The position numbers were made by a program, and so were the translations under genes. Shown in pieces: positions 2,527 through 33,917 of a stretch of DNA of 47,038 bases; positions within the stretch are counted from its first letter, which is position 1; each line of letters begins with the position of its first letter. The notes under the pieces were generated by a model. The model did no database searches, was not told the origin of the DNA, and was given only the letters and a program-made list of their open reading frames with translations. Source of the DNA: Blastocatellia bacterium. GTDB taxonomy: Bacteria; Acidobacteriota; Blastocatellia; UBA7656. Location of the stretch: NCBI GenBank assembly GCA_044868105.1, contig JBIOWC010000561.1:1-47038 (forward strand). Direction: 5' to 3'.

Positions 2527-5500
2527 CTACTTCAATCGCATGGACGGGTCGCCAAACAGTATCCAGGTGCGTCTAACATCCACATCGCCGGTTGAAGCTT
2601 GGGCTTTCGTCGTGAGTTCGCCGAGCGTCAAATTGGCGTTCTCCGGGTTGAACATCAAGCTGAATAATTGGCGATTCATTGCCGTTTGATCGCCCGGACC
2701 CGTCATCCCTGAAGAAGCCCATACGGCAATCGCGCCGCCCGGTTCGGCTTTGAGCAACGCTTCCGCCAACGGTTCCAAAGCCGCATCAGCGAAATAACCA
2801 TTCAAGCAATTCATCATCACAAAAAATGGTAGCCGACCTTGATTGGTCAAACTGCGGGCTTCGGTTGAAGTCAACAAATTATCTGCCCAAATATCAACCG
2901 AAGCATGACCCGAATAATTAATTAACTTCTGCCCGCGATTGATGGCCTCTATCAGGGCGCGCTTGGCCGCCACCGTGCCCACCTTGCCGCGGTCTATGCG
3001 CTCAACCGTTGAACCGTCTTTAATCAACGCCTGCAGTTGACTGCTTGCGGCTTCAAAGTTGAACCCGTTGAGCACATCGCTTACCAGGAGCACGCTGGTT
3101 GATTTCGGCGTTCGTTCGTAAGCAACAATCCTCGCAACCAAACGCGACGCTTCATCGGCGCCGCGCGCCGGCAGACGCCCGATGGCGAGACCGGCCGCCG
3201 GACTTAAGGCAGTTGATTCGGTGAACCACTCGTCGCTCACGGTTTCCATGGTTGCGGTATCGAGTATTCGAGTCGGCACAAAATCATAATCGCCTCTGCC
3301 GAGATAATTTTTCGGGTCAATACTGGCGTCGCCCAACATCACGACGTAGCGCGGCACTTTTTGCCAGTTCGACTGCGCATAGGCGAAGAAGCTTTTCACG
3401 GCTTGCGGATTCTTGTGACCGAAGCTGAATTCATCGAAGAGGTCTTCGATATCAACAATGACCGTTTGCAAGCCTTGATTTTGTCTGTAGGACTGCAACT
3501 CGCGAGCCGCCGCAAGCAGACTGCTGTGCGTGACGATGAGCAAATCGGCGGCATTACCGGGGGTTCGCCAGCTTGAGGGTTGATTGGCAACCACGCGCGC
3601 CGGTCGTTTCATCTGTGTTGTCGTCACCGCTAAAAATGTTCTGGCGGAATCAAACGGCGAAACCGCGGTTACGGCAAATCCGCCTTTTTGTTGCGAGATG
3701 GTCGCAACAATTTCCTGAACTTCGTTCGGATTGGTCACATCGAATACCTTGATGGCATTGGTGGTGAAGCCCTCAATCGAGACTCGCTGCTTGCCTGTGA
3801 CATTAACTACCAGCGCATCCTGGTCCGCCTGATAAGTGTGCCAATAAGCAAGGCGAATCGCATCAACCAGGCTGATGTCGCTCTCGGCGCCGAGCGCTGT
3901 AAGGGTGATTTGATTTGCGCCCTCTTTGAGTCGCGTTTGCGGCACAAAGAATTTCGCTGAACCTTGCGTTTGCCCGTCGAATTGAACGTCGCCAACCGCC
4001 AGGCCATTGACGGTTACGCTGACCCGATGCGCGCCTCGGGTCACGCCTTGCAAAATCACTTCGACAGCCGCCTGACCGCTTGCCGTCGCGTCCAGATGTT
4101 GCAAGGTCATCGCCTGTTCAACCGGCGCGCGGCTTACCACCGCGCCAAAGAAATTTTCTTTATCGCCATTCCTCAGCGCTGAGAAATAGATGGTGCGGTC
4201 CTGGCGCACCACCGTGTGCAGGAAACTGTTGGGCGTCGGTAACCCGGCGTTGCCTTTCACGGTTTGAATACGCTTACCCGGTTGGGTTCCGGCAATCAGC
4301 CAGTAGGCGCGGCTGTCGGTTGCGGCGCTGTCTATCCCGATGCCGTAAAACTCTATGGTTGACGACGCATCAAGTTTTACGTCGCTCTTGCCGGTTATAT
4401 TCATCGGCACTTCTTGGCCGTCAACAACGAGTTGCAGCAGGCGCGGGTTGACCGCTGGGTCAAGCCCTGCGGCTATTAAATCGGCGTATGAAACGCGGTG
4501 AAGGCCCGCTTGTCTGACATACAACTTCACGGCGGCGCGACCTGCAAGGTCTGCGGGTGAGGCAACTGTCGCATTATCTGCACCAGCCGTTTCGGCGTTT
4601 TCATAAGTGGCTTTCGGTTCGACAGCCAGCGTCGGACTTTCTTGCGCCGCGTCCCTTCCCATCAGCGACAAAAGTTGCGCCTGTTTTTCTCTGAGGCCGG
4701 CGGTTTTCTTATCTTTTGCCTGAGTAATTTGAATCGGTCCGTGCCAGGTGCTCCGGCCGCTTAAATCAATCTCTTCAAGCCAGTATCGGGCGCTCGGATT
4801 TGCCTGAGCATCCCACCAAGCGTAAGAGCGCCCGGCCGTCAGCGCCCTACTTTCGCCGGCCACAAGCGCCGAACCGGCGACGATTTGTGGCGTGAGGCGG
4901 GCGCGCTGACCGGCTTCTTCGCGGTAAACCTGAAAGCCGAGGTTGTCAACTTCTTCGCCGGTTTGCCACTGCAACAAAACTTCATTGCCATAATTCATCG
5001 CCTCAAATTTTGCGAGCCTTGAGGCCGTCGGCGATTGCACGAAGAAGTAAGCCACGGCGGCGTCATGGTCTGAAATGCGTTCGGGTCGGTTGGCGTCCGT
5101 GCGATAGACTTCAGGGAAATCGCCGTTGACCCGCGCATAAGCAAAACGACTGAAGAAATCCATCAAGGGTTGATTTACCAGTTCGTGGTCGAGCGCCTGG
5201 GCGTTGCCGTCAAAGCTGTAGGAGTATTTTTGCGAGGGAATTGGCGAGAGGTCAATCAAGTCAACCAAATTGGGATTGACTAGATCAACGCCGTCGCCCG
5301 GCACCACCGTTTCATTGTCAGGAACCGGCGTTCCTTTGATGACGCCAATCGAATCGCCTAACCCATCGTTAAACTGAAAAGCATTGTAATCGCCGATGGA
5401 GATAATTCTCTCCAGCGGGTCTGCTACCTGGCGCGCCTGAATCAGATTGGCGAGGTATTCAGCCTGGGCTTGACGTTTGGCGCGAATGCGTCGGCCGACC

Positions 5501-7965
5501 GTGCCGGTGCCATCCGGCGTGTCATCATCAACATTGTTGAGTGAGCGCAAGTGATTGACGATGACGGTAACCGGGAAAGGCGTTGGAGCGCCTGAGACCG
5601 TAGCGCGCAAAACCAGTGGCGGTCTGTCGTTCAAGGTTTCCGACGCGCCATTGTTCGGATTGACGTAGGTTGTTGTTTTGCCGAACTGGGTCACGTCAAT
5701 AACCGTCACCCGTGGAGATTTCACGAGGAAGCCGACGTCAATCAACCCAACGTCATTGCCTTCGACAAGAAAAGCTTGATAGTTCGGGTTGGGCTGCGCT
5801 GCGGCAACCGCATCATTGTTGATTTTCGTAGCCAGCGCCTGCAGGGTTTTCAAGTCCTCCATCTCTTCGACGCCGAGGATGTCAGGGGTGCCGAGGACAT
5901 TGCGAATCGCCAAGCTGGCTTTATTCAAACGATTATTGAAAGCCGTCGTGGTTAAAACTGTATCGCCACCCGGATCATCCATATTGTCATAGAAGCGTTC
6001 AAGGTTGAAGGCGCCGACGGTGAATTCGTTGCTTTGAGGAACCGGCACGGGTACAAAGGTTGTAATGCCGGAGACGGAGGGCACAGTCGCGGCTTCCGGG
6101 TAGAGCGTGTAATTCGGGAAGCCTCCCGGATCAAGCACGCCGACCAGATTGGTCACCACCGCCCCGGTCGTCACATCAATCGGGGAAGTCCCCGGTTGCC
6201 CGTCACTGTCCACGCGGAGGTGTTCGGGGTTCGCATCAAAGCGCGGCACCGGGGGAATGGTCACGGTGCTTCCCGTCGGTAGCCCGTTCGGCGCTTCGAT
6301 GCCGGGTTCTCTGAAGGGTCGCGCAACCCCTGTGACAACGCCCCAGAATAGGCCGCTACTCGTAGAGGTTGCGGCGCTCTCTGTCTTAAATCCGTCGGTC
6401 GGCGCAACCACGGTCAGCGAATTTACGCGCACGCGCATGTGTTCGTATTTTTCCAACTGTTCAAGCGGACCCGCTGGATCGGTGTCGGCTGCGGTGATGA
6501 GGCTGGCGGTCGGTACCGGATTGCCGGTTGAGAGCAGGTTGACAGTTGGCGACGCCAGTTCGGTGGAGGTTGCCGAATTGATATTTGCCGATGTGCTGCG
6601 AAATTCAGCAACCGTGCCGGTCACCGACACCAGGTTGCCGATAGCTGCCGCTGCCGGGGGGGCGCTCGAAGTAAAGACTAATAAACCTTCCGAAGTGTTC
6701 GGGTCCGCATCAACGCCGGCATCCGGGGTTTGTATATAAAACCCGTTGCTTCTCAGCCCCGTGACAATGCCCGAAGTGGTTACCGACGCGCCAACCAGAG
6801 GTGAGGCGGAACCGTTGCCTTGAATGTCATGGATTTGGGTGATGGAAATATCATCATTCGTGATGGTGCCAACTCCCTGCCCGTCACTGACACTGGCGCC
6901 TGTGACATTGGTGACATTCACCAAAAAGGTTTCGTTGGGTTCGGATGTCATATCGCCGTTGACTAACACGGTGACCGTTTTTGACATTTGCCCTTCGGGA
7001 ATCGAGTCATTGAGATTGAGGATTTGCTGATAATCATTATTGGCAAGCGTCGCCGAACCGTCGGCCGTGTTAACGGTGTAAGAAACGCCGCCCATCGGAG
7101 CCGCCGCATTCAAGCTCACGATAAAGGTGAAATTCGTCGTCCCGCTGTTACCTTCGGCTTGCGTCACATCGTTGATTGAGAGGCTCAACGGAGCAATACC
7201 GGCCGTGATGTTGAGGTCGTCAATACCGACCCACTCGTCATTTCCGGCAGCGTTTGCGGTAATGATACGCACTTGAACTTCAGGTTGATTATTGGCCGCC
7301 GCCGGTAAGGTTGCGCTCACCGGTGTGACCAGCGTCGCAAGACTGGGGCCGGTGGTCGCATCGGCAACAAAGCCGGCGGGAACATTGGTGAAGTTCCCCG
7401 ACGTCCCGACTCTGAATTGCAAAGCCACCGGTTGTATGGCGTTATCCGCTGTGCCATCGATATCCCGGAGGTTATAAGCGACATTGATGTTGCTCTGCCC
7501 TGTGGTATTCAGATGCATCAGCAGGTAAGGCGCATCGGCGGTTCCCGAACCTTGAAGCGCAACGGTGGGGTTGGCAATGCCATCAAACTCGGCGACCCCG
7601 CCATTGGTAATACTGGTGTTCGATTGATTGGCAATGACATCGAGATCATTGGCTACGGCGCTCACGCCCAGCAAAGTTTGTGGGTCAACACCGGTCGAAG
7701 TCGTGATGTCTTGACCGAGAAAACCTTCGATACCGGGTACACCCGACCAGTTATCATTGGCGGTAATCAAGGTGGTCGTCGTCCAATTTTGCGTGAAGGG
7801 TAAAGTCTGTGGCGAGGTGTCGCCTTGAACCGCAAGCGGCAGCAGGATACCGCTCAGGGATAATAAGGCGATGAGAAGGGCGACAAGAAAATTTCTCGTC
7901 GGTTTATGAATCCTGCTGGTGAATTGAATAATTTTATGAATGCCGAATAGCGATTGCTTTTTCAT
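2527..7965 (-). CDS. Large secreted multidomain protein: beta-sandwich + Calx-beta + OB-fold + ExeM/NucH-like EEP nuclease + Ig-like linker + C25 (gingipain-like) peptidase
   Basis: Signal region; Calx-beta (LSINDVTQAEGNSG...EPNETF...GTITNDD); IHDIQG...SPL OB-fold; EEP motifs FNLERF, GVEEME, NHLRS, GDYN, SDHD; C25 motifs IGRLP, NYSGH, MNCLNG, LFGDP. Confidence 0.88.
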   Translation of the reverse strand: MKKQSLFGIHKIIQFTSRIHKPTRNFLVALLIALLSLSGILLPLAVQGDTSPQTLPFTQNWTTTTLITANDNWSGVPGIEGFLGQDITTSTGVDPQTLLGVSAVANDLDVIANQSNTSITNGGVAEFDGIANPTVALQGSGTADAPYLLMHLNTTGQSNINVAYNLRDIDGTADNAIQPVALQFRVGTSGNFTNVPAGFVADATTGPSLATLVTPVSATLPAAANNQPEVQVRIITANAAGNDEWVGIDDLNITAGIAPLSLSINDVTQAEGNSGTTNFTFIVSLNAAAPMGGVSYTVNTADGSATLANNDYQQILNLNDSIPEGQMSKTVTVLVNGDMTSEPNETFLVNVTNVTGASVSDGQGVGTITNDDISITQIHDIQGNGSASPLVGASVTTSGIVTGLRSNGFYIQTPDAGVDADPNTSEGLLVFTSSAPPAAAAIGNLVSVTGTVAEFRSTSANINSATSTELASPTVNLLSTGNPVPTASLITAADTDPAGPLEQLEKYEHMRVRVNSLTVVAPTDGFKTESAATSTSSGLFWGVVTGVARPFREPGIEAPNGLPTGSTVTIPPVPRFDANPEHLRVDSDGQPGTSPIDVTTGAVVTNLVGVLDPGGFPNYTLYPEAATVPSVSGITTFVPVPVPQSNEFTVGAFNLERFYDNMDDPGGDTVLTTTAFNNRLNKASLAIRNVLGTPDILGVEEMEDLKTLQALATKINNDAVAAAQPNPNYQAFLVEGNDVGLIDVGFLVKSPRVTVIDVTQFGKTTTYVNPNNGASETLNDRPPLVLRATVSGAPTPFPVTVIVNHLRSLNNVDDDTPDGTGTVGRRIRAKRQAQAEYLANLIQARQVADPLERIISIGDYNAFQFNDGLGDSIGVIKGTPVPDNETVVPGDGVDLVNPNLVDLIDLSPIPSQKYSYSFDGNAQALDHELVNQPLMDFFSRFAYARVNGDFPEVYRTDANRPERISDHDAAVAYFFVQSPTASRLAKFEAMNYGNEVLLQWQTGEEVDNLGFQVYREEAGQRARLTPQIVAGSALVAGESRALTAGRSYAWWDAQANPSARYWLEEIDLSGRSTWHGPIQITQAKDKKTAGLREKQAQLLSLMGRDAAQESPTLAVEPKATYENAETAGADNATVASPADLAGRAAVKLYVRQAGLHRVSYADLIAAGLDPAVNPRLLQLVVDGQEVPMNITGKSDVKLDASSTIEFYGIGIDSAATDSRAYWLIAGTQPGKRIQTVKGNAGLPTPNSFLHTVVRQDRTIYFSALRNGDKENFFGAVVSRAPVEQAMTLQHLDATASGQAAVEVILQGVTRGAHRVSVTVNGLAVGDVQFDGQTQGSAKFFVPQTRLKEGANQITLTALGAESDISLVDAIRLAYWHTYQADQDALVVNVTGKQRVSIEGFTTNAIKVFDVTNPNEVQEIVATISQQKGGFAVTAVSPFDSARTFLAVTTTQMKRPARVVANQPSSWRTPGNAADLLIVTHSSLLAAARELQSYRQNQGLQTVIVDIEDLFDEFSFGHKNPQAVKSFFAYAQSNWQKVPRYVVMLGDASIDPKNYLGRGDYDFVPTRILDTATMETVSDEWFTESTALSPAAGLAIGRLPARGADEASRLVARIVAYERTPKSTSVLLVSDVLNGFNFEAASSQLQALIKDGSTVERIDRGKVGTVAAKRALIEAINRGQKLINYSGHASVDIWADNLLTSTEARSLTNQGRLPFFVMMNCLNGYFADAALEPLAEALLKAEPGGAIAVWASSGMTGPGDQTAMNRQLFSLMFNPENANLTLGELTTKAQASTGDVDVRRTWILFGDPSMRLK

Positions 7966-32375: not shown

Positions 32376-33401
32376 ATGAGTGAAGAGAAGACCGAGTTTG
32401 AAGAACACCCCCTGGCGGACGATTTAGACGTCACCTGGCTTACCAAGATTGACCGCGAACGCGCCTCACGTTGGTTGAAGCTTGCCGGGCTGTTTGCCGC
32501 CGGCGCGGCTGGGTCGCTGACCCTGCTGGTTGGCGCTGCCAGCTTTCCGCTTTCGGGTCTGCTCATCCGCCCGAAGATGAAACGGGTCGCGCAACTCAAA
32601 AGCCATCGGTTGCAATCCTTCATAAAAAATGCGGGCGTTGAATACGAAGAGGTGGCGATTCCCTCTTTTGATGGAACGCGATTGCACGGGTGGTGGTTTG
32701 AAACCGCAAAGACCGCCGCAACGGTTATCGTCATTCACGGCGTAAGAAAAAATCGCACGGATGTTTTGCGCGCCGCTCTGGCTTTGCGTCACGCCGGTTT
32801 CAACGCCCTGGTCTTTGACGGGCGCGGTCACGGGCACAGCGAAGGCTACTATGTGACCTACGGGTTTAATGAACGCCGCGATGTTGAATCGGTGATTGAC
32901 TGGTTGGTGGCTCAAAAACAGATTGATAAAGATCGCATAGGCCTGGTCGGCGAATCCATGGGCGCGGCGATTGCCATTCAGGTTGCCGCCCATAATGAAT
33001 GGATTCGTTGCGTGTGGGCCGATAGCCCGTTTGCTTCCCTCAGGCGCATTTCACACGAGTTTATTCAAAGCGCCACGCGGTTACCGAACGTCGTGTTAAA
33101 TCCCTTGATGTGGACGGCAAGACATATGGCAAATTATCGCGGCAATTTTGAGATTCAGGCGATCGAGCCGGTGGCGCTCGCCGGGAAAATTAAATGTCCG
33201 GTCTATTTAATTCACGGCACCAGCGACCAGTTGATTGCCGTGACGCATTCCCGAGAAATTTACGATGCGCTCACCGCTCAGAAAGAGTTATGGGTGGTCG
33301 AAGGCGTGCGCCATGCAAAAGCGGCGCGCCACGCCAAGCGCGAATATCGTGAACGCTTGATTCGATTTTTTAACGACAACCTCGCAAAACCCGAAGCCTG
33401 A
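32376..33401 (+). CDS. Alpha/beta hydrolase with N-terminal membrane anchor
   Basis: DGTRLHGW, IHG, DGRGHG.S, GESMG nucleophile, IHGTSD and His near the C-terminus; SD GAGGTG. Confidence 0.9.
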   Translation: MSEEKTEFEEHPLADDLDVTWLTKIDRERASRWLKLAGLFAAGAAGSLTLLVGAASFPLSGLLIRPKMKRVAQLKSHRLQSFIKNAGVEYEEVAIPSFDGTRLHGWWFETAKTAATVIVIHGVRKNRTDVLRAALALRHAGFNALVFDGRGHGHSEGYYVTYGFNERRDVESVIDWLVAQKQIDKDRIGLVGESMGAAIAIQVAAHNEWIRCVWADSPFASLRRISHEFIQSATRLPNVVLNPLMWTARHMANYRGNFEIQAIEPVALAGKIKCPVYLIHGTSDQLIAVTHSREIYDALTAQKELWVVEGVRHAKAARHAKREYRERLIRFFNDNLAKPEA

Positions 33402-33448
33402 TGGCGGATATTTTGCGCCCCTGACATGCGGCCTTTTCAATTGAAGCG

Positions 33449-33478
33449 TTGACTTTTTTGCAAAGCTTTTGGTAATTT
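33449..33478 (+). promoter_or_regulatory. sigma70-type promoter of the tRNA
   Basis: TTGACT-N18-TAATTT with a TGn extended -10, 27 bp before the tRNA 5' end. Confidence 0.55.
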
Positions 33479-33505
33479 ATCGGTTCCTTCACGATGAAGG
33501 ATTTT

Positions 33506-33819
33506 TCCTGAGTAGCTCAATGGTAGAGCATCCGGCTGTAAATGGTTGCAGCTTCCACAGGTGACTGTGGTTGAAAAACTGGGTGAATTCAAGGAACCCT
33601 TCTCTAACGCAAGTTAGAATGGCAACCTTGAGCGAAGCCTGCTGAAGGGTGTTGAAGTAAGCAGGAACGTGCAGAGACTAGGAGTTGAGGAACCCATCCA
33701 ATAAAACTCCCGCGAGCGCCCGGCAACTTTGAAAAAGTTGATGAGATAGTCCGCACCTTTGCGAAAGCATAGGGTAAAGCGTAACCGGAGGGTTGTAGGT
33801 TCGAGCCCTACCTCAGGAG
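33506..33819 (+). tRNA. trnN: tRNA-Asn(GTT), intron-split: exon 1 33506-33539, exon 2 33782-33819
   Basis: The joined 72-nt sequence TCCTGAG TAGCTCAATGGTAGAGCA TCCGG CTGT|TAA CCGGA GGGTT GTAGG TTCGAGC CCTAC CTCAGGA G folds as a cloverleaf. U1-A72/C2-G71/C3-G70 and G73 fit Asn. CCA is not encoded. Confidence 0.93.
33540..33781 (+). ncRNA. Group I self-splicing intron (242 nt, no homing endonuclease ORF)
   Basis: Exon ends in U and intron ends in G. P1 GCUGU/GCAGC has a U-G pair at the splice site. P10 pairs GGUUG with exon 2 UAACC. Core P (GAATTCAAGGAA), Q (AACCTTGAGC), R (GCAGAGACTA) and S (GAGATAGTCC) elements are present. Confidence 0.92.
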
Positions 33820-33822
33820 TTC

Positions 33823-33864
33823 AAAACAGAAGCGGCAGTCAGAAATGGCTGCCGCTTCTGTTTT
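33823..33864 (+). terminator. Intrinsic terminator after the tRNA
   Basis: AAAACAGAAGCGGCAGTCA-GAAA-TGGCTGCCGCTTCTGTTTT. Confidence 0.85.
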
Positions 33865-33917
33865 CCGGCAAACTTGATTTGCCTACTTCTCTGTCCTTCA
33901 TGCATCATAAGCCGCAT

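Follow-up and report, generated by a model that had tools for sequence, protein, structure and literature searches.

A group I intron without a reading frame in the anticodon of a tRNA-Asn(GTT) gene of a Blastocatellia bacterium

A split tRNA-Asn gene and its ribozyme

The window, by which we mean the whole 47,038-base stretch of Blastocatellia contig JBIOWC010000561.1, contains a tRNA-Asn(GTT) gene interrupted in its anticodon by a group I intron. An original prediction, made from the letters of the DNA, had placed a 242-nt insert between GT and T of the anticodon; its coordinates and junctions proved exact by ARAGORN in intron mode and by in silico joining of the exons. The anticodon is cut between GU and U, at position 35/36 of the tRNA. 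The joined exons form a canonical tRNA-Asn(GUU) cloverleaf with the acceptor stem UCCUGAG/CUCAGGA, and the junction restores GUU and no other anticodon. As had also been foreseen, a conventional search overlooks the gene: ARAGORN with default settings reported 0 tRNA genes across the whole window. Because default tRNA finders skip the split gene, tRNA-Asn would be scored as missing, and completeness scores lowered, in genomes without a second copy. The parts of the gene are as follows.

33506..33819, + strand: intron-containing tRNA-Asn(GTT) gene; ARAGORN with introns allowed, tRNA-Asn(gtt) i(36,242)
33506..33539, + strand: exon 1, 34 nt; 3' end ...GGCUGU, with anticodon bases G34 and U35
33540..33781, + strand: group I intron, 242 nt, without an open reading frame (ORF); starts AAAUGG, ends AAGCG; identified by RF00028 and by covariation on 23 relatives
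33782..33819, + strand: exon 2, 38 nt; 5' end UAACCGGA (U36); CCA not encoded

The covariance model RF00028 (Intron_gpI) of Rfam matched bases 33530-33773 along all 253 of its positions (1-253) with 80.5 bits against a gathering cut-off of 50 (E 5.4e-19). It was the only Rfam family above gathering in the window, and this match was the sole such hit in the 8.9-Mb genome. We assigned the helices manually, with the Rfam alignment as a check (window position = 33539 + intron position i); changes on both sides of a pair refer to an alignment, A1, of 23 ORF-less intron-bearing genes, one of them from Nitrospira.

33535-33539 (GCUGU) with 33548-33552 (GCAGC, internal guide), + strand: P1; U33539.G33548 at the 5' splice site, 8-nt loop
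33555..33570, + strand: P2 hairpin, 6 bp, GUGA (GNRA) loop
33579-33585 (5' strand) with 33717-33723 (3' strand), + strand: P3; both-side changes in 3/7 pairs
33589-33594 with 33626-33631, + strand: P4, enclosing P5
33598-33608 with 33613-33622, + strand: P5, GCAA loop
within 33632..33670, + strand: P6 (2 bp)
33638-33643 with 33660-33665, + strand: P6a; both-side changes in 4/6 pairs
33674-33680 (G, bulged A, GACUA) with 33747-33752 (UAGUCC), + strand: P7, in a pseudoknot with P3; 6/6 pairs invariant (n=23)
33681..33710, + strand: P7.1-like hairpin between P7 and P3'; both-side changes in 4/6 stem pairs
33724..33740, + strand: P8 hairpin
33753-33754 with 33779-33780, + strand: P9.0; both-side changes in 2/2 pairs
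33756..33773, + strand: P9, GAAA loop; both-side changes in 6/7 pairs
33781, + strand: omega-G, the terminal intron base; column invariant in A1 (G276)

P7 is presumed, from what is generally known of group I introns, to be the guanosine-binding helix. The original prediction had read both P1 (GCUGU:GCAGC with U-G at the junction) and the terminal G correctly. The unconstrained minimum free energy (MFE) fold recovered P2, P3, P4, P5, P6a, P7.1, P8 and P9. No ORF longer than 51 amino acids overlaps the intron and the window copy has no homing endonuclease gene, in agreement with the earlier observation. The identification as an ORF-less group I intron at position 35/36 of tRNA-Asn(GTT) held in every test run and is supported.

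Covariation, spread and nuclease genes of the intron family

The helix model was applied to A1, where 95.4% of cells were paired. Both members of the pair had changed in 37 of the 90 modelled pairs, compared with 16.2 +/- 2.4 after shuffling (0/500 reaching the observed number) and with 4-11 when the partners were slid; the compensatory changes were located in P3, P5, P6a, P7.1, P9.0 and P9. P7 never varied, which is uninformative either way. The U.G pair at the 5' splice site was present in 23/23 aligned genes, in columns that are partly fixed by the pattern with which the genes had been fetched. A copy in a genome of the same genus is 95% identical to that of the window, with 11 of its 15 differences in unpaired columns. 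Three pairs were touched: U-A became G-C, C-G became U.G, and one pair was lost at the tip of P8. At the level of sequence, this is the substitution pattern of a ribozyme under selection and not of a decaying insert.

Among 41 related genomes (G000, the source genome, included), 8 bear an intron at the same site, with lengths from 241 to 893 nt, and relatives have the exons directly joined, without an intron, at 18 loci. The gene upstream, encoding a hydrolase, is common to intron-bearing (L003, L004, L009) and intronless (L015, L021, L028) relatives. A single orthologous locus thus exists with and without the intron, as a presence/absence polymorphism. In the class Blastocatellia, intron DNA was matched in 46 of 401 genomes (G000 included) and 26 of 88 genera, at one place per genome. 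By family, the matches were distributed as 13/52 (f1), 23/220 (f4), 8/87 (f5) and 1/9 (f9), with 0/32 in six other families, and the matching loci were labelled Pyrinomonadaceae, Blastocatellia or Acidobacteriota.

For a wider search over species genomes we used a pattern of the P4'-P6-P7 core, which is independent of P1 and P2. It recovered at least 120 loci/species genomes under about 17 phylum labels, chiefly Acidobacteriota and Nitrospirota. Among 80 rows listed, 29 were Nitrospira and kin, 27 Acidobacteriota and 24 others; these last included Binatia, Deltaproteobacteria, Planctomycetia, a PVC-group bacterium, Rokubacteria and Methylomirabilota, as well as Chloroflexota, Rhodothermales, Actinomycetota, Bipolaricaulota and Krumholzibacteriia. 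ARAGORN, run on 120 listed loci, called tRNA-Asn(gtt) with the intron at 35/36 in 93, mis-split 12 and made no call at the remaining 15, all of them short loci or contig ends. The labels Thr, Asp, Pro, Tyr or Ser at the 12 loci were rejected, since all 12 read GGCTGT before and TAACC after the insert and are mis-split tRNA-Asn genes. The exons vary by phylum, as expected of native tRNA-Asn genes. With the family already present so broadly, the earlier suggestion that an Acidobacteria-like host would widen the host range carries little weight. The strict core pattern had 0 matches in viral contigs; this pattern is narrow, and phage copies could escape it.

Ribozyme cores were excised by sequence anchors, excluding duplicates and loci that lacked an anchor. 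They gave 138 distinct cores, and after one row of at least 400 nt was dropped, a quick maximum-likelihood tree of 137 rows was built, in which the window and the rows with G handles were labelled Acidobacteriota by kinship. The tree contained an Acidobacteriota group of 63 rows (58 so labelled), a Nitrospirota group of 37 (35 so labelled) and a mixed group of 29. Phylum labels changed 28 times on the tree, against a minimum of 17 and a shuffled mean of 70.0 (0/200). So few changes indicate that, apart from some transfers or contigs placed in the wrong bin, the intron seldom leaves its phylum. The intron also occurs in bins that bear the titles Heliobacteriaceae, Clostridia, Klebsiella pneumoniae or Alphaproteobacteria (L039/L104, L082, L133, L115, L106); the rows of these oddly titled bins mostly nest in Acidobacteriota, with L115 instead beside a row labelled Myxococcota. 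Two such contigs are identical to contigs of the relatives G040 and G011, so the bin labels look wrong.

Some members of the family carry nuclease genes. In the P1 loop of some relatives there is an ORF with HNH domains (PF13391 at 2e-6, and PF01844). In L005 (1291-1572) and L007 (1150-1566), the HNH frame has no stop of its own and runs through P1', P2, P3 and P4 into P5; the N-terminal part in L005 looks frameshifted. L006 and L008 retain only the 3' end of the ORF. Other relatives have a 224-amino acid LAGLIDADG_2 gene (PF03161, 5.3e-34) inside the P7.1-like hairpin. The 49 complete genes that were fetched with the P1/P2 pattern fall into the following classes of intron length.

250-288 nt: 25 genes
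304-422 nt: 5 genes
549-578 nt: 15 genes
683 nt: 1 gene
868-905 nt: 3 genes

With its 8-nt P1 loop, the window copy is the stripped form, and the tree places L042 and L005, which bear HNH genes, among its closest relatives after the copy from the same genus. No NCBIfam family matched the HNH protein of the relatives. Against solved structures, its best match was marginal (E 0.028), to the endonuclease domain of a group II intron maturase. A free-standing HNH homologue (33% identity, E 7.5e-8, 201-amino acid frame) lies on contig C908 at 4419-4700 on the - strand (locus L205), immediately 3' of a tRNA-Arg(tcg) gene (4841-4916) that has the same orientation. One conserved site thus offers a series of states across phyla, namely empty, with an HNH intron, with a decayed HNH gene, with an ORF-less intron and with a LAGLIDADG intron. 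Such a series lends itself to work on the cycle in which homing endonucleases are gained and lost, and on transfer from phylum to phylum.

Splicing, a second tRNA-Asn gene and other explanations

We consider the window element to be a splicing-competent, ORF-less group I intron in a chromosomal tRNA-Asn(GUU) gene, derived from a homing intron that carried an HNH gene and was specific for the anticodon loop of tRNA-Asn, and give this reading a probability of roughly 0.87. From the anatomy, the covariation, the distribution of the family and the nuclease-gene variants we infer the following course of splicing and homing. The gene would be transcribed as a 314-nt precursor, in which the intron is predicted to fold into a P1-P9 core with the P3/P7 pseudoknot and the extra P7.1-like hairpin. 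Free guanosine bound in P7 would attack after U35, at the U.G pair of P1. G33781 would then take the guanosine site, and the freed exon 1 would attack after G33781; ligation of GU to U would restore the anticodon GUU. The ancestor was probably mobile, homing into the conserved sequence GGCTGT^TAACC of tRNA-Asn genes by means of an HNH enzyme whose gene lies in the P1 loop; some lineages would instead use a LAGLIDADG enzyme with its gene in the P7.1-like hairpin.

Further tRNA-Asn genes were sought in intron-bearing genomes by BLAST with two natural tRNA-Asn queries, together with ARAGORN on all 18 other candidate places. No second tRNA-Asn gene was found by this test in four of the five closed intron-bearing genomes of the class, the exception being G292. 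In these four genomes (G168, G311, G324 and G361) the split gene is seemingly the sole tRNA-Asn gene, a sign that the family splices in vivo.

The source genome is different in this respect. The original prediction had reasoned that splicing would be essential if this were the only tRNA-Asn gene, a premise that fails here. ARAGORN listed 69 tRNA genes and one transfer-messenger RNA (tmRNA) in the genome. Besides the split gene there is one credible tRNA-Asn(gtt), intronless and with CCA encoded, on contig C438; an Asn(att) call of 96 nt on C591 (16662-16757) was discounted for its mismatched stems. The credible copy is only loosely similar to the spliced product of the window gene. It is one of about 28 tRNA genes packed into an array of 3.5 kb (C438, locus L204, 1405-4946). 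The array recurs with 73-93% identity in a large contig of the same-genus genome G001 (C3:320392-324437) and is likewise present in G004, G006, G011, G003 and G005. Its recurrence in relatives shows that it is a genuine part of these organisms. On C438 a VanZ-like gene (284-778) lies on one side of the array and an HNH endonuclease gene (4995-5609; PF01844, 4e-15) on the other. ARAGORN also made some further calls of odd length elsewhere in the genome: Gly(tcc) of 101 nt (C536, 5189-5289), Phe(gaa) of 86 nt (C292, 1466-1551) and Pro(cgg) of 82 nt (C722, 20629-20710).

RNA was sought in contigs of four soil metatranscriptome runs by comparison with bases 33400-33900; DNA may be present in such libraries. 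Near-identical pieces of the intron occurred in X2 (33574-33723, 1 difference) and X8 (33565-33744, 2 differences), and a piece in X1 (33567-33819, 3 differences) runs unspliced into exon 2. Three X1 contigs contain the joint from 33539 to 33782, which skips 242 bases, with 2-3 differences in the exons and a different T-stem. Because of these exon differences the joint may stem from intronless relatives, and we counted it neither way.

Several observations count against the proposed splicing-competent intron. The intronless tRNA-Asn gene of the array could relax selection on splicing in this organism, and the BLAST search for second genes in the closed genomes would miss a very divergent tRNA-Asn. 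The four soil runs contained no unambiguous spliced RNA read of the window copy. P10, which the original prediction had listed as present, is indeed formed in the window by 4 Watson-Crick pairs and 1 wobble with exon base +1 skipped, but it is weak across the family, as only 2/5 pairs (both U-A) hold in all 23 aligned relatives. The MFE of the intron alone has a z-score of -1.48, which is not significant by itself. Finally, P1 and P2 never vary in A1, in part because the loci were fetched by a P1/P2 pattern.

Two of these observations, the coexistence of two tRNA-Asn genes and the weak P10, also favor the idea that splicing is conditional or assisted by a protein, so that the intron would act as a valve on the supply of tRNA-Asn while the array copy serves as a constitutive source. 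The persistence of ORF-less copies with strongly conserved structure, and the invariant loop bases of the P7.1-like domain, point in the same direction. Against it, no ligand-binding or regulatory module is evident in the sequence and Rfam finds no other family, and small introns of this kind in tRNA genes are known to self-splice. We regard such a valve as improbable.

Slightly less probable still is a dead intron, with an inactive ribozyme in a tRNA pseudogene and the array tRNA-Asn supplying the cell. A second tRNA-Asn(gtt) gene with encoded CCA in an array that is a true chromosomal feature of the genus, together with the loss of the endonuclease gene from the window copy, would fit this explanation. 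It is contradicted by the state of the gene itself: all core helices are intact, with 2 non-standard pairs among the 90 modelled (tRNA stems counted), the changes relative to the same-genus copy spare or compensate helices, and the exons are identical or near-identical to those of functional intronless orthologues. Moreover, a same-genus genome retains the array and the intron-bearing gene together. An artefact, either a chance covariance-model hit or a chimera of an assembly that is fragmented into 934 contigs, is refuted by the E value of 5.4e-19 and by the occurrence of the same architecture at the same site in more than 100 independent assemblies, closed chromosomes included.

Subgroup, known tRNA introns and flanking signals

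Group I introns of subgroup IC3 have P2 without P2.1, no P5abc, GNRA loops L2 and L9, and no extra helix between P7 and P3'. The architecture of the window intron fits the IC3 periphery, and its core sequence is close to those of other introns in tRNA(CAU) genes of the class; between P7 and P3', however, lies the 30-nt covarying hairpin at 33681-33710. In overall architecture it resembles an IC3 intron to which a domain has been added. This hairpin was present in 29/29 diverse family members shown, with a covarying stem and a conserved GAGGA ... CCRAUAA. At 242 nt and with a conserved extra hairpin, the intron is a compact candidate for structural work.

For comparison, other introns of the class were sought with RF00028 and were found in 57 of 151 genomes (a tally that includes G139, a weak match below the cut-off). 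Those in tRNA genes occupy tRNA(CAU) genes and one tRNA-Lys(CUU) gene. The tRNA(CAU) genes have the anticodon stem AATCCG (L242, L244, L247, L250, L252) or are of fMet type (L245, L248, L249, L251). The tRNA-Lys(CUU) gene (L234, G058:C1:295107-295344) is split at 35/36, between CU and U, as read by eye, and was mis-called Thr by ARAGORN. Four further RF00028 hits (L233, L236, L237, L246) have 23S rRNA-like flanks and are group I introns in rRNA genes. Four comparators (L242, L245, L250, L234) largely agree with the window intron in the sequence of the J3/4-P4-P5-P6-J6/7-P7 core (AAUUC.GGGAAGCCU ... UGGUAAUCC.GAGC.AAGCC ... AGAGACUA), and they have the GAAA loop L9 and the J8/7 segment GA.GAGAUAGUCC as well. 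They differ in host tRNA, with splice sites read by eye, and in all 4 P7 reaches P3' within a few bases, leaving no P7.1-like hairpin.

Tentatively, the introns that Acidobacteriota, Nitrospirota and allied phyla have in tRNA-Asn might form a structurally distinct, undescribed IC3-like sub-lineage with an obligatory P7.1-like hairpin, whose invariant GAGGA...CCRAUAA internal loop would make a new tertiary contact (for example, as a receptor for the invariant GAAA of L9), and whose ORF-less copies would be long-lived, selectively kept residents, in most hosts in the sole tRNA-Asn gene. This proposal is doubtful as a whole.

The classical settings of bacterial tRNA group I introns are tRNA-Leu(UAA) in cyanobacteria and plastids, tRNA-fMet in cyanobacteria, tRNA-Ile(CAU) in Azoarcus and tRNA-Arg(CCU) in Agrobacterium. 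The window intron resembles these IC3 introns in being a small ribozyme (about 200-250 nt) in the anticodon loop of a bacterial tRNA, with a P1 that uses bases of the anticodon loop, GNRA loops on P2 and P9, and neither P2.1 nor P5abc; both show a sporadic distribution and occasional nuclease genes. Unlike them, it occupies another host tRNA and another site, between the second and third anticodon bases, its family has the conserved P7.1-like hairpin, and it is hosted by Acidobacteriota, Nitrospirota and further phyla, most of them uncultured. The tRNA-fMet intron of Synechocystis, on which Bonocora and Shub worked in 2001, is said to bear its own homing endonuclease. It is likewise a group I intron of the anticodon loop, with an endonuclease that targets the anticodon region of the intronless gene; in the tRNA-Asn family, by contrast, the enzymes are HNH (P1 loop) or LAGLIDADG (P7.1 loop) and occur in relatives only, the window copy having none.

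A survey of 80,413 bacterial genomes raised the number of settings from the four classical ones, all IC3, to 21, of which 17 were new (Williams, bioRxiv 2020, doi 10.1101/2020.01.27.920355). Under its naming rule, the window intron would be 'Asn.4Ug', as it lies in tRNA-Asn(GUU) after the fourth loop base (35/36) with U at -1 and G at omega. The running text of that survey contains 'Asn' and '4Ug' 0 times, and the settings are given in the images of Table 1/Fig. 3. The tRNA-Asn 35/36 site is probably already catalogued, with the window copy a further member from another host group. In the portions available of two reviews from 2014 (PMC3984707, PMC4033280), the word 'Asn' occurs 0 times, and one of them places tRNA group I introns only in cyanobacteria and alpha- and beta-proteobacteria; the available portion of the tRNAscan-SE 2.0 paper names introns in fMet and Ile2 only. 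A 2021 paper noted group I introns in some tRNAs, left unnamed, of circularised metagenome genomes. Our literature search, with sources available in part (PMC8450103, PMC5733544, PMC8172020, PMC11915505 and PMC13153191 among them), returned no paper that describes a group I intron in a bacterial tRNA-Asn gene. The window copy leaves the known mechanism of such introns unchanged; what may be new is the conserved P7.1-like domain, together with the wide range of hosts outside Patescibacteria.

Neither neighbour of the tRNA gene is unusual: an alpha/beta hydrolase gene lies upstream of it and a 4HBT thioesterase gene downstream. Two candidate signals flank the tRNA gene.

33449..33478, + strand: possible promoter TTGACT, 18 nt, TG-n-TAATTT, seen by eye only
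33823..33864, + strand: terminator-like 19-bp hairpin; dG -33.7 kcal/mol, z -8.24, 0/200 shuffles as good

The original prediction had given the gene its own promoter and terminator. A consensus scan found 0 promoter sites for the tRNA-Asn gene, so that this half of the claim stands less firmly than the other, which has the strong hairpin 3' of the gene in its favor. That hairpin is not listed by a rule-based terminator scan because of the loop and T-run rules of the scan. Between the promoter-like hexamers and the first base of the tRNA, at 33485-33501, there is also a weak 7-bp hairpin followed by TTTTT (z -1.28), which might weakly terminate transcription of the upstream hydrolase gene or belong to the leader of the tRNA.

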